Virus record (IMG/VR): IMGVR_UViG_3300042874_000443
Span: 93,409-157,408 of that record
Length of the DNA: 64,000 nucleotides
Direction: 5' to 3' (one strand)
DNA from: a virus
The translations under genes and the position numbers were made by a program. The notes beneath the pieces were generated by a model. The model saw only the letters and a program-made list of their open reading frames with translations. It searched no databases and was not told the DNA's origin. Positions 6,266 to 61,067 of the stretch are shown piece by piece (the stretch's first letter is position 1; each line of letters starts with the position of its first letter).

Positions 6266-6268
6266 TAC

Positions 6269-6439
6269 GTGAACTGGGTGGATGACAAAGGCGTCGTTCA
6301 CCACGGTATCGGTATGACACGTATCGAAGGTCATCCGCGCGTGGGAAGAACACGCAAGACACACAAAGTAGTGACGTGCCTATGGTGCGTCCAATCCCCG
6401 TTTCAAAAGCCAAGAAGGATGAGAAGGATAAGAAGATGA
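6269..6439 (+). CDS. 56-aa member of the DxxGxxH...TCxxC mini-protein family (not in ORF track)
   Basis: MNWVDDKGVVHHG...KVVTCLWCVQ; its stop overlaps the next ATG (ATGA). Confidence 0.75.
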   Translation: MNWVDDKGVVHHGIGMTRIEGHPRVGRTRKTHKVVTCLWCVQSPFQKPRRMRRIRR

Positions 6440-9714: not shown

Positions 9715-12700
9715 GTGCAATCTGCCGACGCCCCGTTCAACTTTCCCGTCGTACAACCCGTCACTGTTCGCAAGCGTGACGGACGCACCACGCAGCCCTT
9801 CGACGTCGGAAAGATCGAGAGCGCCGTACGCAAGGCATGGGTCGAGGCAGAAGGCTCCGTCGACGAGGAGGCGCTCCACTGTGTAGCAACGTTCGTTTCT
9901 GCGACGCTTCATTCGGACGTCACCGACGTCGAGCAGATCCAAGACGTCGTCGAAGTCGCGCTCATGCGCGCGAACCAGTTCAAGGTCGCCAAGGCGTACA
10001 TCATCTATCGCCAGAAGCGGACCGAGGCGCGCGCTGTCCGTCAGCAACCGGATGCCTCGGCTGTCAGCGACTACATCCACGCCAGCAAGTACGCACGCTA
10101 CGTCCCCGAGATGCAGCGCCGCGAGGTCTACGAAGAGACCGTCGCACGCGAGGAAGGCATGCACCTGCGTCGCTTCGCACACATCCCGGAGCTACTTCCT
10201 CTCATCACACGTGCGCACGATCTGGTGCGTGAGAAGAAGGTTCTGCCGTCGATGCGTTCGATGCAGTTCGGCGGTACGGCCATCGAAGCCAACCACAACC
10301 GCATCTACAATTGCTCGGCGACACTGATCGACCGCCCTCGTGCGTTCGCCGAAGCGATGTTCCTGCTCCTGTCAGGCTGCGGTGTCGGATACTCCGTGCA
10401 GATCGAGCACGTCGAGAAGCTGCCCGCGCTCGTCGACGTCGATGAGAAGAAGGTCGTCCACCACGTCATCGACGACACCATCGAAGGTTGGGCGAACGCG
10501 CTCGACGCGCTCATCAACAGCTACATCGGCGGCTACTACGTCGAGTTCGCGTTCAACAAGATCCGAGGGGCGGGTGCTCCGCTCAAGACGTCAGGTGGGC
10601 GTGCACCAGGTCACCAGAAGCTGAAGCTCGCGCTCGAACGTGTCCGCAAGGTCCTGCACAGCGCGCAAGGACGCCAGCTACGCCCCATCGAATGCCACCG
10701 CATCCTGTGCCATGCGGCGGACGCGGTGCTCTCGGGGGGCATCCGTCGCAGCGCGATGATCTGCTTGTTCTCGATCGAGGACAGCGAGTTGATGCACATC
10801 AAGGCGGATCGCGACTGGTACGACAAGGAGCCGTGGCTCGCCAACGCCAACAACTCCGTCGTGCTCAAGCGTGACGAGGTGAAGGAGAAGCACTTCAAAC
10901 GCATCTTCGGGATGACGAAGAACTTCGGCGAGCCCGGCGTCTTGTTTGTCAGCGACTACAATCACGTCACCAACCCCTGCGTGCCGCCCGGCACGCGCAT
11001 CCTCACGCGTGAGGGGTACGTCGCCATCGAGACCTGCGTTAACCGGCCGACCGTCGTTTGGAATGGTCTCGAGTGGCGTACCGTCACACCGCACGTCACC
11101 GGACATGACCAACCCATCGTTCGTGTGCACCTGTCCGACGGGACGTCACTGGACTGCACCGACTACCACGAGTGGTGTGTGGCCGCGGGGAAGTGGTCTC
11201 GAGACCACACCGAGGAACGTGTGCGTGCGATCGATCTCGAAGAGGGCGACACCTTGATGCGTTACGACATGCCCCTCGTCGAAAACGGCGTTGACATGCC
11301 GTACGCTTATTCGCATGGGTTCTGGTGCGCTGACGGAACCGTCGAGGACGCTGGTCGCAAGACCGCAATGTGTTACGGCATCAAACGGGGCCTGATCGCA
11401 CGTATGGAGCACGGCGGCGCGGTGGAACGGATCTCTGACGATACGGAGCGCGGACGCTCGCGTGTGGTCTTCACCTCGAACATGCCAGACAAGTTCGTCG
11501 TGCCCCACAATACGTCGATCCAATCGCGCCTCGACTGGGTCGCGGGGCTCTTGGACGGTGATGGTTCCGTAGTCAAGAATCCGAAAAGCGTCGGATTGCA
11601 GCTCTCTAGCGTGAACGTACCGTTCCTCCGCGAGGTTCGTTTACTGCTCACCACGCTCGGCGTACAGGCGAAGATCGCCGAGATGCATGAAGGCGGGATG
11701 CGCCTCCTCCCAGACGGCCGAGGCGGCAAGGCCGAGTACCTTACACAACCGAGCTTCCGTCTTCTCATCAACGCGACCGACACACACCGTTTGGTGCGTG
11801 CAGGTCTGCGTACAAGCCGCCTCGACCTCTCGGCGGCTGAAACTCTGCCACAACGGGATGCCCGCCGCTTCGTTACTGTTACGGCCGTCGAACGCCTGGC
11901 GCCTGCGCCTGTTGTCTATTGCTTCACGGAAGAGAGTAACCACACCGGGACGTTCGAAGGCATTGTGACGGGGCAGTGCGCGGAGATCGGTCTCGACCCG
12001 CTTCTCGTCCACGAGGACGGCACCACGTCGACGGGCTGGGCGATGTGCAACCTCTGCGAGATCAACGCTGCGAAGCTCACCTCGTTCGAGGATTTTTCGG
12101 AGGCGGCATGGGCGGCGACGCTCATCGGTACGATGCAGGCCACGTACACGGACATGCCGTACCTCGGCAAGGTCACCGAAGCGATCGTCCGTCGTGATGC
12201 TCTTCTCGGTATCGGCATGACAGGCATGCAGGACGCTCCGCACATCGCGTGTCACCCCGACTACCAACGCGTCGTCGCGGGCAAGGTCGTCGACTGGAAC
12301 CGCGAGTACGCGGCGCTTCTTGGCATCAACCAGGCTGCGCGCACCACCTGCGTAAAGCCGTCAGGCACGACGTCACTCGAGCTGGGCAACGTCGGCTCTG
12401 GCATTCACCCGCACCACGCCCGTCGCTACATCCGCCGTGTCACCGCCGACGAGCTGGAGGTCGTGTTCCAGGCGTTCAAGACGGCGAACCCGCACATGTG
12501 CGTGAAGAAGCCGGACGGCAAGTGGGTCATCGAGTTCCCTGTCGAGGCGCCCGAAGGTGCGGTCCTCAAGGAGGACCTGACTGCCGAGCAGTTCATGGAG
12601 ATGGTGCGTTCGACCCAGCAGAACTGGGTAGTGCCCGGCGCGACCCGTCCCAGCCATGCGCCCGGCCTCTCTCACAACGTGTCGAACACGATCACGGTCC

Positions 12701-12969
12701 GTTCAACGGAATGGGCCGAGGTTGCCGACTACCTCTGGAAGCACCGCGACAACTTCACAGGCGTTTCGCTTCTTTCGGACACTGGAGACATGGTCTACGC
12801 GTTCGCGCCGTTCGAAGCGGTCAAGACGGAAGCGCAGGAGCGTCGCTGGAACGAGTTGATCGTGGGCTACACGCCCATCGATTACCTCTCGGTCTTCGAG
12901 GCCGAAGACGGCACGAACCTGACGGGCGAAGCAGCATGCGCCAACGGCGCGTGCGAGTGGCGCCCGTAA
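9715..12969 (+). CDS. nrdJ: Class II (B12-dependent, monomeric RTPR-type) ribonucleotide reductase with N-terminal ATP cone and an intein
   Basis: VRKRDG ATP cone, YNCS, GCGVGYS, IRRSA, NP/CAEI, CNLCEIN, CVKPSGT, C-terminal CANGAC. Confidence 0.88.
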   Translation: MQSADAPFNFPVVQPVTVRKRDGRTTQPFDVGKIESAVRKAWVEAEGSVDEEALHCVATFVSATLHSDVTDVEQIQDVVEVALMRANQFKVAKAYIIYRQKRTEARAVRQQPDASAVSDYIHASKYARYVPEMQRREVYEETVAREEGMHLRRFAHIPELLPLITRAHDLVREKKVLPSMRSMQFGGTAIEANHNRIYNCSATLIDRPRAFAEAMFLLLSGCGVGYSVQIEHVEKLPALVDVDEKKVVHHVIDDTIEGWANALDALINSYIGGYYVEFAFNKIRGAGAPLKTSGGRAPGHQKLKLALERVRKVLHSAQGRQLRPIECHRILCHAADAVLSGGIRRSAMICLFSIEDSELMHIKADRDWYDKEPWLANANNSVVLKRDEVKEKHFKRIFGMTKNFGEPGVLFVSDYNHVTNPCVPPGTRILTREGYVAIETCVNRPTVVWNGLEWRTVTPHVTGHDQPIVRVHLSDGTSLDCTDYHEWCVAAGKWSRDHTEERVRAIDLEEGDTLMRYDMPLVENGVDMPYAYSHGFWCADGTVEDAGRKTAMCYGIKRGLIARMEHGGAVERISDDTERGRSRVVFTSNMPDKFVVPHNTSIQSRLDWVAGLLDGDGSVVKNPKSVGLQLSSVNVPFLREVRLLLTTLGVQAKIAEMHEGGMRLLPDGRGGKAEYLTQPSFRLLINATDTHRLVRAGLRTSRLDLSAAETLPQRDARRFVTVTAVERLAPAPVVYCFTEESNHTGTFEGIVTGQCAEIGLDPLLVHEDGTTSTGWAMCNLCEINAAKLTSFEDFSEAAWAATLIGTMQATYTDMPYLGKVTEAIVRRDALLGIGMTGMQDAPHIACHPDYQRVVAGKVVDWNREYAALLGINQAARTTCVKPSGTTSLELGNVGSGIHPHHARRYIRRVTADELEVVFQAFKTANPHMCVKKPDGKWVIEFPVEAPEGAVLKEDLTAEQFMEMVRSTQQNWVVPGATRPSHAPGLSHNVSNTITVRSTEWAEVADYLWKHRDNFTGVSLLSDTGDMVYAFAPFEAVKTEAQERRWNELIVGYTPIDYLSVFEAEDGTNLTGEAACANGACEWRP
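10978..11976 (+). mobile_element. 333-aa intein with LAGLIDADG homing endonuclease, ending in Gln
   Basis: NP|CVPPGTRILT...CTDYHEW...GFWCADG...AGLLDGDG...HTGTFEGIVTGQ|CAEI. Confidence 0.92.
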
Positions 12970-45123: not shown

Positions 45124-45610
45124 CAAGCAATGGTGGACGGTATTCGCCGTCTATGATGACAACGAACAAGCTTACGTTGACCATTTCGAAGCCAAGACAT
45201 GGCAGGAAGCGAGGTCTAAGGCTCTGCGCAAAGCAGAAGCCGTGATTCTGATCGCGGGTATCGTGCCTGGGAAGGTGGATTCAGTCGATGTTGACTCCAC
45301 GGACAACGTCATCCCCATCCGAGGCAAGGGACATGCGATCGAAGTCGCACACGTTCGCATCACAACAAGGAAGATTGTCATCCCGGGACGTTGTCCGGGG
45401 TGCAAGAAGGACCTTCGACGTGCGAACGCGCTTGTTGAAACGTATCTAGTCGCCCATCAATGGAAGGCGCACTTGTCACACAACGACAAAGACCTATCTG
45501 GCGAGCGAGACGGCACTATGAACCGCATCCCGAAGCAGGTCATCGACGCAACACGCCTCGAGTGCGGCTCCTGCGGCGTGATGGTTTGGGACGGGTACCA
45601 TGTCGGCTAA
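45116..45610 (+). CDS. Hypothetical protein with a Zn ribbon
   Basis: CPGC...CGSC. Confidence 0.65.
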   Translation: MASKQWWTVFAVYDDNEQAYVDHFEAKTWQEARSKALRKAEAVILIAGIVPGKVDSVDVDSTDNVIPIRGKGHAIEVAHVRITTRKIVIPGRCPGCKKDLRRANALVETYLVAHQWKAHLSHNDKDLSGERDGTMNRIPKQVIDATRLECGSCGVMVWDGYHVG

Positions 45611-46406
45611 GAAGATGAAGGTGTTGCGCGATGCAACACCTGAAATCGACGTCGACCACATCCCCGACCGGCTGTTTCTCTCGAAGAATGACAAGACGGG
45701 CTGGTCCATCAACACCAGCATCGCGATGACCTGTCGTCCGACGCCCGGTTGCGCCGTCTACTGCTACGGCCTCGGCGGTCGCATCTCGATGCCGGCCTCG
45801 TTGCAGCGCCAGGCGGAGAACGCCGCGATGTTCGGCATCGAAGAATGGGGCCAGCTCGCCGACGAAGCGATGGACATCACCCACGTGGTGTCTCGGCAGC
45901 AGGACTTCTTGCGGATGTTCGGCGTCGGAGACCTGCAACTGGGCTCGGTCTACTTCATCAATCAGCTCGCGGCGTACGCCAAGGCCATCAAGCCCAAGTT
46001 CCGCATCTGGGTGTCGACGCGGAAGTTCGACATGGCGGCACGCCTGGTCGATTCACCCAACCTGCACGTCATGCTCAGCTTCGATGCGACGACACTGAAG
46101 CGCCACCGGACGGAGGGGCTCAAGCTCCTCGCGCTACGGCGGCCTCAGTTCTTCGCAGCATGGGTACGTTGTTCCAAGGAGGAGAACATCCCCGACTGGA
46201 TCAACGTCGTCTTCGAAGAGCACGCCATCGGACGAGGGCGTGCTAAGCGACCGCCCGAGAAACGCGCCTGCCCAGCAACCATCCACGAGGACTTCGCTGG
46301 ATCGGCTCCGCTCGAGAGCGCGTGTAGCAACTGTCAGTACTGCTTCGACACCAAGAAGCGGTCAACCGGATCCCCTCTGATCAAGCTGAAAGGAACACGT
46401 CGATGA
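45600..46406 (+). CDS. GP88-like (radical-SAM-related, Cys-rich) protein
   Basis: TCRPTPGCAVYCY, LRMFGVGD, WVSTRK, NLHVMLSFD, CP...CSNCQYC. Confidence 0.65.
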   Translation: MSAKKMKVLRDATPEIDVDHIPDRLFLSKNDKTGWSINTSIAMTCRPTPGCAVYCYGLGGRISMPASLQRQAENAAMFGIEEWGQLADEAMDITHVVSRQQDFLRMFGVGDLQLGSVYFINQLAAYAKAIKPKFRIWVSTRKFDMAARLVDSPNLHVMLSFDATTLKRHRTEGLKLLALRRPQFFAAWVRCSKEENIPDWINVVFEEHAIGRGRAKRPPEKRACPATIHEDFAGSAPLESACSNCQYCFDTKKRSTGSPLIKLKGTRR

Positions 46407-51709: not shown

Positions 51710-52189
51710 GTGGAGGTCGTACCGGCGTGTCCGGTGCCCTGCAAGTACTGCCCGTGGCGTCTCGCCAACCAGGGCTCAAAACCGGACCATAACAAGTTCT
51801 ACACTCCTGCGAACTTGGCTCGGTTATGGAAGGGCTTGCGCAGCGGCGCCCGCATGAGCTGCCATCCGACCGACCCGCGGATGGCCTCGTTCGAGGGCTA
51901 CGAAGCGCTCGCCGATCGCGAGGTCACCAACGAATGCACAGGCGCGCTCGTCATCGTGCAGCGCGAGTTCATGGTGTTCCAGAACATCTGTCAGGCGGAT
52001 CCGAAGAGCAAGACGTCGCTGCAGCAGTACCGCAAGCAACGTCCCAACGGCATGACGCGCGACGGCCTCATCGCCATCGTCGAGCGCTCGATATTCGGCG
52101 GCTCCTCGCTCAACCCGATCGCGATGTCGCGTCCGAACCTCGGCGACGAGGAGATCGGCTACTCCGCGATCGATCGTCCGCCGCGATGA
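51710..52189 (+). CDS. PCxxCP[WF]R...CH...CxGA metal-binding protein, paralogue 1
   Basis: PCKYCPWR, SCH, CTGA. Confidence 0.65.
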   Translation: MEVVPACPVPCKYCPWRLANQGSKPDHNKFYTPANLARLWKGLRSGARMSCHPTDPRMASFEGYEALADREVTNECTGALVIVQREFMVFQNICQADPKSKTSLQQYRKQRPNGMTRDGLIAIVERSIFGGSSLNPIAMSRPNLGDEEIGYSAIDRPPR

Positions 52190-52404
52190 ACGTCCGCCGT
52201 TGGGACAACGTCGTTCACGTCATCTTGTGCGAGAACCCCGAACACCCGCAAGTTGACAGTCAAGGCCGTCGTGTGGCAAACGCATACGTCGTAACAACGA
52301 CGTGTATGCGTCACGCCAAAATCAACGACTACGGTCGCAACAAACTCACCGAAGATGCGCCAACGTGCATTGTGTGCGTGGCGGGAGGTTATTCTGATGA
52401 ATAA
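52186..52404 (+). CDS. Dispersed member of the TCxxC mini-protein family
   Basis: WDNVVH...TTC...PTCIVC. Confidence 0.7.
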   Translation: MNVRRWDNVVHVILCENPEHPQVDSQGRRVANAYVVTTTCMRHAKINDYGRNKLTEDAPTCIVCVAGGYSDE

Positions 52405-57423: not shown

Positions 57424-57586
57424 ACCCAAGCAGGAGTACGTTCACGTCATCGACAAGAAGACGCGCAAGTCCATCGAGGCCATCGGTCCATCGGCGGACG
57501 CGGAGCGTGTAGCTCGCGGCGTGTCCATCAACCTCAACCACGAAGACTACGAGCTGGCGATCAGCCCAAAGAAGACGTGGCCATGA
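57416..57586 (+). CDS. Hypothetical protein
   Basis: GGAG RBS; AERVARGVSINLNHEDY. Confidence 0.65.
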   Translation: MAKPKQEYVHVIDKKTRKSIEAIGPSADAERVARGVSINLNHEDYELAISPKKTWP

Positions 57587-57819
57587 CGTTGCGTGAAGTC
57601 CTCGCCCGTTCGAAGACGCCGCCCAAGGTCGGTGACCATGAGATCGTCGTGGGCCCCGACGGAATGGCGCACATCCTCGTCATCTCGCACGTCGACTTCG
57701 AGAACCCCGTCGAAACGCACATGAACTGGGACTGCCCGTGCCGTGCGATCAAGACGGGCAACCCGATGGACTTCGAAGTCGCGCCGTCCATCACATGTCT
57801 GCAATGCATGCTTTTGTGA
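57583..57819 (+). CDS. TCxxC array member 1
   Basis: GPDGMAH...CPC...ITCLQC. Confidence 0.75.
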   Translation: MTLREVLARSKTPPKVGDHEIVVGPDGMAHILVISHVDFENPVETHMNWDCPCRAIKTGNPMDFEVAPSITCLQCMLL

Positions 57820-58244
57820 TCTGCGGCTGGTGTGGTTCGAAGGACACGGACGCGGAGTTCGTCGACAACGGTGTCGGGATGCAGCAAGTGTCGGCGGCGA
57901 CCTGCGGGAACTGCGGTGCGACGCAGGTCGGTCCCTACGACGAGGGTGAGATCGACCCCGAAGATAAGAAGCGCGGCTGGCACGCCGGGCACGAATCCTC
58001 AAACATCGCTGCGCGTGCAACACGCTTCGACGGCCCGTCTATCTACGCCAGCGACTTCGTCAACGGCGAGACGATGCTCATCCAGTACCAAGGCACCGTG
58101 CACCAAGCGTTCAAGCGCCTGTCGTTCTCGGCGCCGACGTTTCAGATGTTGTGCGGGCTCGAGGTCGAAGTTGCTGATCGCCCGCCTGTCGACGCTATCA
58201 CCTGTTTCGAATGCATCGCCTACGACGCGAAAGGAAGACCATGA
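57816..58244 (+). CDS. TCxxC array member 2 (Zn-ribbon fusion)
   Basis: CGWC..CGNC then QGTVH...LCG...ITCFEC. Confidence 0.75.
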   Translation: MICGWCGSKDTDAEFVDNGVGMQQVSAATCGNCGATQVGPYDEGEIDPEDKKRGWHAGHESSNIAARATRFDGPSIYASDFVNGETMLIQYQGTVHQAFKRLSFSAPTFQMLCGLEVEVADRPPVDAITCFECIAYDAKGRP

Positions 58245-58633
58245 AGATCGACTTGGCACTCCTCCGCAAGGAGGTGACGGTCACTCTCGAGCGCGAAGAA
58301 GAGGACTCGGCCTACACTGACGGCCACTTCCAACGCGAGGACGGCTCGAACAACGACGAGCTGTGCGCCTGGATTCGCGACGAGCTGCGCTCGGGCAACT
58401 ACTGGGCGTGGTGCGTCGCCCACGTGACCGTCATGTACGACGACCTCAAGGCCGAAGAGTGGCTCGGCGGCTGTTCCTACGAGTCCGAAGCGGACTTCAA
58501 GAAGGGCGGCTACTACGAGAGCATGATCGACGAAGCGCTTCGGTCTCTCGCCAAGGACCTCGAGTCGATGGCTAACGCCCACATCTGGGAACACGACCCC
58601 GTGACGTGCTTCAAGTGCGTGGTAGCAGCGTAG
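58241..58633 (+). CDS. TCxxC array member 3 (unrelated domain plus C-terminal motif only)
   Basis: ...HIWEHDPVTCFKC. Confidence 0.7.
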   Translation: MKIDLALLRKEVTVTLEREEEDSAYTDGHFQREDGSNNDELCAWIRDELRSGNYWAWCVAHVTVMYDDLKAEEWLGGCSYESEADFKKGGYYESMIDEALRSLAKDLESMANAHIWEHDPVTCFKCVVAA

Positions 58634-58830
58634 AGACGTGGACCGACGACGCGGGGTTGACCCACATCCTTCGGACCAAGAACATCCGTTGGTCCCGCTG
58701 CCTTCGGGAAGTTCCCCGCGCGCAGTCCGTCGACTGGATCGATCGCCCCGCACGCGTCCCAACATGCCTTGCCTGCATCGGCCGACAGGATGGGAAGCTT
58801 CCCTATGGCGAACGAACGAAAGTTCCATGA
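58615..58830 (+). CDS. TCxxC array member 4; start uncertain
   Basis: WTDDAGLTH...SRC...PTCLAC. Confidence 0.7.
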   Translation: MRGSSVETWTDDAGLTHILRTKNIRWSRCLREVPRAQSVDWIDRPARVPTCLACIGRQDGKLPYGERTKVP

Positions 58831-59005
58831 CACCCCGCAACTGCTGCGCGACAGGGCAGGCGTCGTCCATGAGAGCGCCGGCACCTACAACATCAACTCG
58901 CTGGCGGTGTGTGAGCTGGGTACGTCCGACTTCAACCTCGGCGAAGGGATCGAGCAAGTCTACGACCTGCCCGTTACGTGCCTGCGCTGCGTCGGGGCAC
59001 GATGA
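58805..59005 (+). CDS. TCxxC array member 5
   Basis: RDRAGVVH...AVC...VTCLRC. Confidence 0.75.
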   Translation: MANERKFHDTPQLLRDRAGVVHESAGTYNINSLAVCELGTSDFNLGEGIEQVYDLPVTCLRCVGAR

Positions 59006-59193
59006 CGCTGCTTCGTGACGCGAACGGCTTCGTCCACGGGACCCGCAGCCACGGCATGACTATCCTTCTCTGCGAAGAGAAGGACGGTCACCGTGACTAC
59101 GGAACCCTGATCCACGCGGACGAGGATCCGACCATCGAGTGCATCACGTGCTTGCAGTGTCTCGCGGCGCCGGAACCGACGCGTCGCCGGTAG
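59002..59193 (+). CDS. TCxxC array member 6
   Basis: RDANGFVH...LLC...ITCLQC. Confidence 0.78.
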   Translation: MTLLRDANGFVHGTRSHGMTILLCEEKDGHRDYGTLIHADEDPTIECITCLQCLAAPEPTRRR

Positions 59194-59347
59194 CCGTCGT
59201 CTGGACGAACACCATCGTGCCGATCAGCTCGACCAGCCACTGCTCTGCATCGCTGCCACGCCCCGTTGCAGCGCAAAGCGCCGCCATCCACGCGAGCGCC
59301 TTCGGGCACTGCTTGGTCGAGAACATGGAGTAGAGACACGTCCACAT
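59144..59347 (-). CDS. Small antisense-oriented gene interrupting the array
   Basis: MWTCLYSMFSTKQCPKALAW...; high GC3; fills the only gap in the array; CCCGATAATC upstream. Confidence 0.45.
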   Translation of the reverse strand: MWTCLYSMFSTKQCPKALAWMAALCAATGRGSDAEQWLVELIGTMVFVQTTATGDASVPAPRDTAST

Positions 59348-59387
59348 GGCGGCTTCTTCGGAGGCACGATTATCGGGTAAACGTCGC

Positions 59388-59609
59388 ATGAAAGGGGACA
59401 ACAACATCGTGCGTCAAGAATCGTTCCCCGTCAACTGTCTGTTGGTTTGGTCGGACAAACATTCGGGTGGGGGCTTACGGCATTGCACGACGAATCATCG
59501 TCAAAACGAGACGCCGTGCGGTCTTTGGACCAAGCGACTGTTCTACCAAGGCCCCTACGGCTGTCGCGAAGAAGCGACGATCACCTGTCTCCGGTGCACG
59601 CTTGCGTAA
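59388..59609 (+). CDS. TCxxC array member 7
   Basis: WSDKHSGGGLRH...TPCG...ITCLRC. Confidence 0.72.
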   Translation: MKGDNNIVRQESFPVNCLLVWSDKHSGGGLRHCTTNHRQNETPCGLWTKRLFYQGPYGCREEATITCLRCTLA

Positions 59610-59799
59610 GCGAAAAGACCGGTCATTCGCGCGTTACTATGAAGGTAACGATGGCCTCCGACATGTCGTTCACAAGAACAGCATCTGGGCTGCGTGCGGG
59701 CAATCCATCCTCGACGTCAAGATCTGGGGCGGTAGCAAGATGGTGACGTGTCTATTGTGTTTGGGTGACGCGGACAAACGTCGTTGGGGGACTTCGTGA
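59602..59799 (+). CDS. TCxxC array member 8
   Basis: GNDGLRH...AACG...VTCLLC; TTG start. Confidence 0.7.
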   Translation: MRKRKDRSFARYYEGNDGLRHVVHKNSIWAACGQSILDVKIWGGSKMVTCLLCLGDADKRRWGTS

Positions 59800-59996
59800 G
59801 TCCGGACATTCGTCTCTTCACCGACAACACCGGCGTCACGCACTGGCGCTACATCATGACGGGCATCCTGTTCGTTTGCGGCAAGGAGCAAACGTACAAA
59901 AGTTCGTTCGAGCCCGAACACCCCGGCTACCCAACCTGCGTGGCGTGCATCGCCATGGTGGACCGGGATCAACACTTCGTGCCTTCGAGGTACTGA
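59796..59996 (+). CDS. TCxxC array member 9
   Basis: FTDNTGVTH...FVCG...PTCVAC. Confidence 0.75.
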   Translation: MSPDIRLFTDNTGVTHWRYIMTGILFVCGKEQTYKSSFEPEHPGYPTCVACIAMVDRDQHFVPSRY

Positions 59997-59997
59997 C

Positions 59998-60210
59998 ATG
60001 ACGATCAAGCTCAAGGACAACCTCGTGCACGCGACCCAAGAACACGAGAGCAAGGACCGCTACGGCAAGACCGTATGTCAGGTCTCGTACACCACTGACC
60101 CTGTCCACGTGCGGGTCATCAACAACAACGTCTACGAAGACACCGCCGTTGCAAAAACGGCGAAGCCTCCGCTCACGTGTCTGTTGTGCATCGCGAGGAG
60201 TACGGCATGA
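59998..60210 (+). CDS. TCxxC array member 10
   Basis: KDNLVH...TVC...LTCLLC. Confidence 0.75.
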   Translation: MTIKLKDNLVHATQEHESKDRYGKTVCQVSYTTDPVHVRVINNNVYEDTAVAKTAKPPLTCLLCIARSTA

Positions 60211-60749
60211 AAACAACCTACAAAGTCAAACGTGGGCACGTTTGGCACGTCGTGCACGAGACCAAGACAGGGCAGGCGCGTGTCAGTGCCTATACCTTGT
60301 GCGGGTCGAACTACGAGCACGGCGAACGCAGCACACGCCAGCCGACGTGCCCCAACTGCTGCAAGCTCGACAACCCCCTGACCCTCACGAGCGAAGAGCG
60401 CGTGATCCTGAAGGACGCCGCGCGCATCAACCGTTGGCAGGACGCTCCCCGGCACTCACGTGCGTTTCAGCGTTTGGTCCAGGTCGACTACATCACCCCA
60501 GACGCGCAGCTGACCCGTCGAGGCCTCATCCTGATGGAGGACTACGACCTCGGCCCCGTCCCGCTCGCGGACCTTAGTGGCCTCGTTCACTCACGCGTCG
60601 CGCTCGGCGGGACCCAGGCGTGTGACCACATGCGCCACCTCGCCGACGCGGACAAGATGACCACCGAACGCTACGCCAAGCTCCGGAAGATCAGTGATCA
60701 GGTCATGGTAACGTGCATCCAGTGCATCGCACATGAAGACCTACGCTGA
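60207..60749 (+). CDS. TCxxC array member 11 (two modules flanking a wHTH-like segment)
   Basis: VWH...TLCG...PTCPNC; LTRRG; DLSGLVH...AC...VTCIQC. Confidence 0.78.
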   Translation: MKTTYKVKRGHVWHVVHETKTGQARVSAYTLCGSNYEHGERSTRQPTCPNCCKLDNPLTLTSEERVILKDAARINRWQDAPRHSRAFQRLVQVDYITPDAQLTRRGLILMEDYDLGPVPLADLSGLVHSRVALGGTQACDHMRHLADADKMTTERYAKLRKISDQVMVTCIQCIAHEDLR

Positions 60750-60897
60750 CTCCAAAGGCGTCGTCCACGTGTTGACGCGGCAGTACCCGGACTGGACGTG
60801 CTGCAACCAACGCATCAACGGTGTCGTCGAACAGAACTCGAGCAAGTTCCCGACGTGCCTCTGGTGTGTTATCAGCCGACTGTGGAAACCCTGGTGA
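60733..60897 (+). CDS. TCxxC array member 12 (54 aa, not in ORF track)
   Basis: MKTYADSKGVVH...WTCC...PTCLWC. Confidence 0.75.
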   Translation: MKTYADSKGVVHVLTRQYPDWTCCNQRINGVVEQNSSKFPTCLWCVISRLWKPW

Positions 60898-61067
60898 CCT
60901 GCACGGACGACGAAGGCGTCGTCCATTACGCGATACACCACGGAACCTGGTGCGGCTGGTCGCGCACGTGGGTCGGCGGTGAGTGGTTGATCGACAAGCA
61001 ACCCAAGATGGTGACGTGCATCGAATGCATCGTGCAGCAAAGCCGCAATGACCCGCCGCGCCCGTAG
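60894..61067 (+). CDS. TCxxC array member 13
   Basis: TDDEGVVH...TWCG...VTCIEC. Confidence 0.75.
   Translation: MTCTDDEGVVHYAIHHGTWCGWSRTWVGGEWLIDKQPKMVTCIECIVQQSRNDPPRP

Follow-up and report, generated by a model that had tools for sequence, protein, structure and literature searches.

A lineage-specific family of small His-Cys3 proteins, most likely zinc-stabilised, encoded in long tandem gene blocks of uncultured phages

The stretch of DNA analysed here (the window) comprises 64,000 nucleotides, positions 93,409 to 157,408 of the IMG/VR virus record IMGVR_UViG_3300042874_000443; it is the last 64 kb of this 157,408-bp viral contig, referred to below as G000, and one strand is shown, 5' to 3'. 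Close to its end, at window positions 57577-61067, there are 13 plus-strand open reading frames (ORFs) with 14 TCxxC motifs. As judged from sequence comparisons, this array represents a single segment of an extensive and old, lineage-specific family of mini-proteins, each about 55 residues in length. The same tiny fold recurs 30-45 times and takes up much of a genome of some 185 kb, and it is found throughout a clade of uncultured phages. Each copy is maintained by selection, and the family is unusually large for a phage: since genome space is tight, phage genomes rarely keep paralogues beyond a few.

Organisation of the array and signature of the module

The array came to attention through an original prediction, made from the letters of the window, that listed 13 plus-strand ORFs with their C-terminal motif strings and a single break near 59.2-59.4 kb. 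Both are recovered in the present analysis: the sole plus-strand interruption is at 59194-59345, and it holds a conserved reverse-strand ORF. The genes are tightly packed, i.e. of 12 junctions, seven are 4-nt ATGA/GTGA overlaps, four are longer overlaps and one is a 1-nt gap. The GC content of the array ORFs is intermediate at the first, low at the second and high at the third codon position, which is the pattern of genuine genes in this genome of 61% GC.

Canonical modules (GxxH, a Cys, and a helix starting at TCxxC) number 13 and are spread over 12 of the 13 ORFs. The H-C-CxxC scaffold that had been proposed for the entire array holds for these 12, with invariant H, T, C and C, and does not hold for the ORF with the VTCFKC motif. 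An alignment of 30 modules, drawn from the whole G000 contig, gives the consensus x-D-x-x-G-[VL]-[VT]-H ... C[G] ... [PV]-T-C-[LVF]-x-C-[ILV], in which His, Thr, Cys and Cys never vary and no more than 10% of the modules lack the middle Cys. Likewise, in 92 metagenomic homologues H, C and C are invariant and the middle Cys is again found in at least 90%. The distance from H to C varies between 4 and 33 residues and that from C to CxxC between 15 and 56, so the description of a minimal scaffold, with four metal-type ligands and loops of variable length, was an apt one. Synonymous codons are used for the invariant Thr (ACG, ACC or ACA) and Cys (TGC or TGT), as had also been noted.

The modules differ widely in charge. 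Their isoelectric points (pI) range from 4.1 to 11.7; a pI above 8 was calculated for 11 of the 31 modules in G000 and for 20 of the 45 in the related contig G003, and 13 of the 31 in G000 are acidic. Some members carry additional parts, namely a C4 ribbon, a second module, a conserved extension at either terminus or an N-terminus that is hydrophobic. An example of the latter is a module protein of contig L001 (4806-5336, plus strand), whose hydrophobic N-terminal segment, WWLVPAGLLAGGFLWLLL, resembles a membrane anchor. A dedicated search for fused longer forms of the module found none, which is weak evidence.

The family extends beyond the array

A profile search places 31 modules on the G000 contig, all of them on the plus strand. 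The 13-gene array is present as described, yet it is only a piece of this 31-module family: a second array with 14 modules is situated at genome positions 1-8 kb, and lone modules are found at 92.8, 99.7 and 145.6 kb. Two alignments were used for such searches, A1, consisting of paralogues, and A2, built exclusively from metagenomic homologues (92 sequences). The A2 profile recovers the same 31 places in G000 (31 on the plus strand and 0 on the minus strand, with E values from 1e-16 to 1e-2), and because a profile made only from metagenomic proteins finds the same plus-strand places we regard the observation as confirmed.

Via the helicase, 11 related viral contigs were found at 50-78% identity, and the relatives of 158-188 kb carry 26-45 modules each. 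The A1 profile detects 38 modules in G001, 28 in G002, 27 in G003 and 26 in G004, and a local hmmsearch at E <= 0.01 gives 42 for G001, 32 for G002 and 45 for G003. In the more distant relatives the broader A2 profile finds 20 (G008), 6 (G009) and 3 (G005). Three metagenomic contigs, L004, L006 and L007, have approximately 18-30 profile matches each, arranged in runs of genes for 55-80 amino acids. Among 1.8 billion representatives, 259 clusters (50% identity) match the profile at E <= 0.001; nearly all are 52-100 amino acids long and show the same motif, and the ones looked up are unnamed metagenomic proteins. With many paralogues in tandem and a copy number that differs among relatives, the modules form a multigene family. 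A hidden Markov model search of the genome, the relatives and Pfam, proposed as a check with the original prediction, thus returned 31 modules, 26-45 modules and no well-characterised family, respectively.

The G000 record is classed as linear and 84% complete. Its tail corresponds to positions 37.6-38.7 kb of G001 and its head to 64.15-64.37 kb, so that the break in the G000 contig falls within the module block; roughly 25 kb are missing, a stretch that in G001 contains 15 further modules. A gap of this size agrees with the completeness estimate. G003 had been labelled as having a terminal repeat, and this repeat is only a 22-nt assembly overlap. G003 is therefore a circular assembly, and its modules, located from 151.7 kb to the end and then from 0.1 to 8.3 kb, make up one same-strand block of about 42 kb. 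The idea that the arrays are flanked by true terminal repeats was discarded, the supposed direct terminal repeat of G003 being the same 22-nt overlap.

Predicted fold and relation to known families

Window positions 59626-59790 were modelled with AlphaFold2 using alignment A1, at a predicted local distance difference test (pLDDT) score of 89.6. The strands of this model span residues 3-6, 12-15 (with the His) and 33-35; they are followed by a helix (43-54) beginning at the CxxC. A second AlphaFold model, that of a metagenomic homologue with the separate 92-sequence alignment A2, reached a pLDDT of 80.3. Both show the same order of three strands and a C-terminal helix at the CxxC, which is positioned at the N-terminus of this last helix, while His and Cys come from strands or loops. 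The structure prediction suggested earlier as a check hence yields one shared layout from two separate alignments.

No solved structure, whether of the treble-clef or zinc-ribbon classes or of any other, was found to correspond to this layout. Foldseek returned nothing at E <= 0.001 against the PDB, the best scores of VIA-align over 48,161 chains were Z 3.6 for PWWP domains and Z 2.7 for 3rms_A, and sequence-profile searches of PDB sequences gave only chance-level rows. Fold matches in BFVD are weak, with template modelling (TM) scores of 0.55-0.71 and E values of 0.016-1.4, and none is found there at E 0.001; the two models share four top targets. The shared targets are small proteins, so far uncharacterised, from phages of Streptomyces and Caulobacter and unnamed entries; among the BFVD matches as a whole, phages of Microbacterium are represented too. 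Examples are A0A2U8UP14 (Streptomyces phage Ibantik) and A0A385EGL0 (Caulobacter phage CcrSC), and we know of no module expansions in those phages. In the ESM Atlas the modelled fold resembles clusters of viral and actinomycete hypothetical proteins (TM 0.73-0.77), including one cluster in which 23% of the members carry zf-HC3 (TM 0.77 over 55 residues).

zf-HC3 (PF16827) is an uncharacterised His-Cys3 zinc-finger family, found mainly in Actinomycetota; among catalogued families it comes nearest to the modules, solely through likeness of fold. It resembles the modules in having one His and three Cys and in being a short, stand-alone domain of about 60-70 residues; it differs in that no module or homologue reaches its 25-bit cut-off, and to our knowledge it is not massively expanded in any phage. 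With this model and cut-off, 0 of 30 G000 modules match, the 92 homologues give two matches under the cut-off (best E 0.0019), and the sole score in a six-frame search of G000 (12.7 bits) comes from a zinc ribbon that is unrelated. The actinobacterial family DUF3039 (PF11238), itself without an assigned function, presumably has an H...CG...CPxC pattern similar to the modules. One module (60201-60389, PTCPNC) matches it on the C...CPxC part at 15.2 bits (E 0.003), below its cut-off of 22.7 bits, and the other 29 of the 30 modules do not match. The loose likeness to zf-HC3 and DUF3039 that was pointed out earlier is thus found at the level of fold or of sub-threshold scores, and no Pfam cut-off is reached. 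Taken together, the family is probably a distant relative of the zf-HC3-like His-Cys3 fingers.

When all array genes were compared with Pfam and PHROGs, the only matches were that of a ribbon to phrog_6115 and, on two genes, PHROG matches at E > 0.01. Against 50,697 phage records, neither the array nor the single modules searched produced a hit by megablast or tblastn. The family is absent from Pfam and PHROGs and uncatalogued, which points to a gap in the annotation resources. We found no description of the family in the searchable literature, in agreement with the earlier remark that no such system has been described.

Evolution of the modules

Within any one genome the paralogues share no more than about 40% identity and most pairs have no BLAST match, which makes the duplications ancient. 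The array is free of DNA repeats longer than 30 nt, and a search of the genome for reverse transcriptase found no RVT_1 match. On the other hand, single modules can be followed from genome to genome. Reciprocal-best orthologues were found for 23 of the 31 G000 modules in G001 (median identity 54%), for 19 of 31 in G002 (52%) and for 16 of 31 in G003 (42%); for comparison, the helicase is 77-78% identical to those of G001 and G002 and 68% identical to that of G003. The order of the module genes is largely syntenic between G000 and the relatives. It had been argued that an array invariant across relatives would speak against diversification; this state is approached, yet there is turnover, as the two array genes at 58615-58830 and 59346-59609 are without an orthologue in G001 or G002.

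Nonsynonymous and synonymous rates (dN and dS) were estimated by the Nei-Gojobori method, pooled over 32 orthologue pairs, the residues flanking the ligands being taken as the core. dN is 0.25 in the core and 0.45 in the loops, i.e. the loops change about 1.8 times faster, and dS is about 1.4 and saturated, so that the dN/dS values are rough. Purifying selection acts on core and loops alike.

The original prediction regarded the array as a library of binders with hypervariable cores that expands by duplication and recombination. The low identity of the paralogues, the lack of repeats in the array and of reverse transcriptase in the genome, the synteny of the orthologues and the purifying selection on the loops lend no support to ongoing diversification of this kind: the variable cores reflect the ancient divergence of individually conserved paralogues rather than ongoing hypervariation. 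The interpretation given in the original prediction is, as a whole, partly supported. A diversity-generating retroelement was considered as well and rejected, since the search for reverse transcriptase was negative and the array lacks template and variable repeats of near-identical sequence. Ongoing or recent duplication is not seen, save for one partial duplicate in G001: at 70279-70700 (L021), adjacent modules share a 93%-identical C-terminal part of 45 amino acids. This may be the only sign of recent duplication, or an assembly artefact.

Proposed role and alternative explanations

The family, its size, its conservation, the purifying selection on it and the predicted layout of the module are direct observations; the role of the proteins has to be approached with more caution. 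In our proposal a beta-hairpin with the GxxH is succeeded by a third strand, after which comes the Cys (often as CG); a variable loop then leads into the C-terminal helix, which has the TCxxC at its start. One structural zinc ion is most likely coordinated by the invariant His and the three Cys, which would make a stable fold possible in very few residues, and two loops and the tails would be free to differ between paralogues. The genes are compact, co-directional, translationally coupled and apart from the structural genes, and in the circularly assembled relative the block of about 42 kb contains about 45 such modules. The proteins would then be made together during infection, and each could be a small binder with one fixed target, used for host takeover or for counter-defence. 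We put forward this reading, of co-expressed, zinc-stapled mini-binders with individually fixed targets, as a tentative one. It is plausible that the members have different targets, given that their pI values span 4.1-11.7 and that some have a ribbon, a second module, extensions or a likely membrane anchor. The stronger version, according to which about 45 zinc-stapled binders of 55 residues form a true multigene family, on a par with those of large eukaryotic DNA viruses, that fills nearly a quarter of the genome, each with a different host or defence target, appears rather doubtful to us.

Several points weigh against the proposed binders. The relatives of the proteins are all unnamed metagenomic sequences, with no homology that points to a function; zinc binding is deduced from the invariance of the ligands only; a scan for sigma-70-like promoters found 0 sites between 54 and 64 kb; and the selection estimates suffer from the saturation of dS. 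Moreover, conserved orthologues that do not race lend weaker support to an arms race than had been assumed. Should the proteins nevertheless be specific binders, they would provide a ready catalogue of small proteins that inhibit defence systems or processes of the host, as well as a compact metal-stabilised scaffold of interest to protein engineers. If the stronger version were true, the family would amount to a library built by nature on a minimal scaffold, from which many new inhibitors of bacterial proteins could be drawn.

Small zinc fingers frequently bind nucleic acids, and the modules could accordingly regulate transcription or translation, in the phage or in its host, or cooperate with the phage's own transcription machinery. 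About a third of them are basic (pI above 8 in 11 of 31 in G000 and 20 of 45 in G003), as one would want for this role, yet the pI range is very broad, with 13 of 31 acidic in G000; beyond the metal site there is no conserved basic surface, and no known DNA-binding fold is matched. We know of no precedent for 30-45 separate regulators in one phage, and we consider this explanation unlikely. It is also conceivable that the modules are associated with the virion or injected, as internal, ejection or decoration proteins, because large phages package many small proteins. The location of the genes in the plus-strand block with the replication genes, away from the blocks of large minus-strand ORFs, argues against this, as does the fact that we saw no N-terminal leader common to the module proteins; we would be surprised if they were virion components.

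Three Cys and one His can also ligate iron or a 2Fe-2S cluster, as in the CDGSH proteins, and the many copies would permit a bulk effect, so one may ask if the site holds iron or an iron-sulphur cluster in place of zinc, or if the family is a bulk buffer for metal or redox. The spacing of the ligands is, however, unlike that of the CDGSH or WhiB motifs, and the paralogues are individually conserved with distinct loops, which favours specific rather than bulk roles; such an explanation is very improbable. We give even less credit to the view that the mini-genes have no individual function and are, for the most part, dispensable, selfish or decaying duplicates. The presence or absence of some members among relatives and the recent partial tandem duplicate in G001 would fit it, but purifying selection is seen on core and loops, order and orthology persist in relatives whose helicase is only 68-78% identical, and the frames are intact with normal codon-position GC.

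Comparison with takeover blocks and viral multigene families

The general features of the proposed binder block can be compared with those of two groups of known systems. Takeover blocks of phages, such as the terminal redundancy of the Bacillus phage SPO1 with its 24 small genes, or the pre-early genes of T5, are likewise long, one-directional stretches of packed small genes without enzymatic domains, set apart from the structural genes. The difference is that those blocks encode unrelated proteins, whereas here most genes share a single fold. Multigene families are also a feature of large eukaryotic DNA viruses, for instance MGF110, MGF360 and MGF505 of African swine fever virus or the ankyrin and Bcl-2-like proteins of poxviruses. 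These also consist of tens of divergent tandem paralogues with some gain and loss among relatives. They differ in host domain and in fold; the paralogues described here are far more divergent and the change in copy number is modest. In addition, a location of the arrays at physical genome ends is not supported here, in view of the 22-nt overlap in G003.

Individual genes of the array

Mini-gene 1 (57583..57819, plus strand, as are all array genes) encodes a canonical module protein of 78 amino acids with ITCLQC, and its ATG overlaps the upstream stop by 4 nt; an identical sequence, P0156, is present in the protein collection, and the G001 orthologue is 44% identical. Gene 2 (57795..58244; the start may be 57795, 57804 or 57816) combines an N-terminal C4 zinc ribbon (CGWCG...CGNCG) with a canonical module (ITCFEC). 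The ribbon matches phrog_6115, to which no function is assigned, at E 4.6e-12, and the module matches the profile at E 8e-12; orthologues in G001 and G002 are 62-65% identical, and the ribbon-module fusion is present in G001 too.

Gene 3 (58241..58633, with an alternative start at 58211), which encodes an atypical Cys-rich protein of 130 amino acids with VTCFKC, stands apart. Its orthologues in G001, G002 and G003 have neither the His nor the Thr and show a different Cys pattern, the conserved motifs being GNxWAWC, LGGCSYES and WEHDxxxCFxC, and the match to the A2 profile is limited to the C-terminal part. By its sequence, gene 3 probably belongs to a different or very divergent family.

The next three mini-genes are all canonical: number 4 (58615..58830, PTCLAC), one of the two without an orthologue in G001 and G002; number 5 (58805..59005, 66 amino acids, VTCLRC), which equals P0027 and has orthologues at 47-55% identity; and number 6 (59002..59193, 63 amino acids, ITCLQC), which equals P0006 and overlaps the upstream gene by 4 nt. 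The interruption that follows is covered by the reverse-strand ORF at 59144..59407, which encodes 87 amino acids and is not a module. By tblastn its amino-acid identity is 77% in G001, 60% in G002 and 52% in G003; the frame is open in all four genomes G000-G003, and the ratio of nonsynonymous to synonymous polymorphism (pN/pS) does not discriminate between the two strands as the coding one. This could be a gene or a conserved regulatory region. At the nucleotide level it is 82% identical to G001, seemingly better kept than the neighbouring modules (44-74% at the amino-acid level).

Behind the gap, mini-genes 7 (59346..59609, ITCLRC) and 8 (59467..59799, VTCLLC) are canonical and have uncertain starts; number 7 is the other gene that lacks an orthologue in G001 and G002, and number 8, which contains the module that was modelled, is 76% identical to P0155. 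Mini-gene 9 (59796..59996, PTCVAC) is canonical with orthologues at 65-67% identity, and mini-gene 10 (59998..60210, 70 amino acids, LTCLLC), also canonical, has a long second loop and equals P0041. Gene 11 (60207..60749, 180 amino acids) carries two canonical modules, PTCPNC and VTCIQC, with a linker of about 60 amino acids between them; two-module orthologues are P0005, P0007 and proteins of G001 and G002, and a pattern search of IMG/VR for the two-module protein gave no match. The array ends with two canonical genes, mini-gene 12 (60733..60897, 54 amino acids, PTCLWC), which gives the best profile match (E 8e-17) and has orthologues at 67-71% identity, and mini-gene 13 (60894..61067, VTCIEC), with orthologues at 51-74%. 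Two isolated modules are found elsewhere in the window on the plus strand: a canonical one outside the array at 52180..52401 (PTCIVC), with the close homologue P0152, and a divergent one at 6266..6418 (VTCLWC) without the middle Cys.

Genomic context

The module block shares its strand with the genes for the helicase and ribonucleotide reductase (RNR) and runs opposite to the main blocks of large minus-strand ORFs. The genes that flank the array have no Pfam or PHROG family except weak helix-turn-helix or repressor-like matches on one gene, and among ten larger upstream genes there is only one Pfam match, to a GP88 family protein. The latter is a 268-amino-acid protein (45600-46406, plus strand; PF17338, E 1.5e-9), and the few Pfam matches obtained in the plus-strand block are GP88, the helicase and RNR domains. 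An RNR-like ORF of 1084 amino acids (9715-12969, plus strand) has an ATP-cone and an inserted LAGLIDADG domain, and so it likely carries an intein or a homing endonuclease.

The small genes of the relatives include 2H-phosphoesterase/Acb1-like, NUDIX, GerE, dCMP-deaminase-like and GIY-YIG genes. Genes of the 2H-phosphoesterase or 2',5'-RNA-ligase type adjoin the arrays in L007 (10567-11436), in a 9.3-kb Logan contig and in L001 (9525-11039), and one of them has a weak match to Acb1. At the equivalent place in G000 there is an ORF of 504 amino acids.

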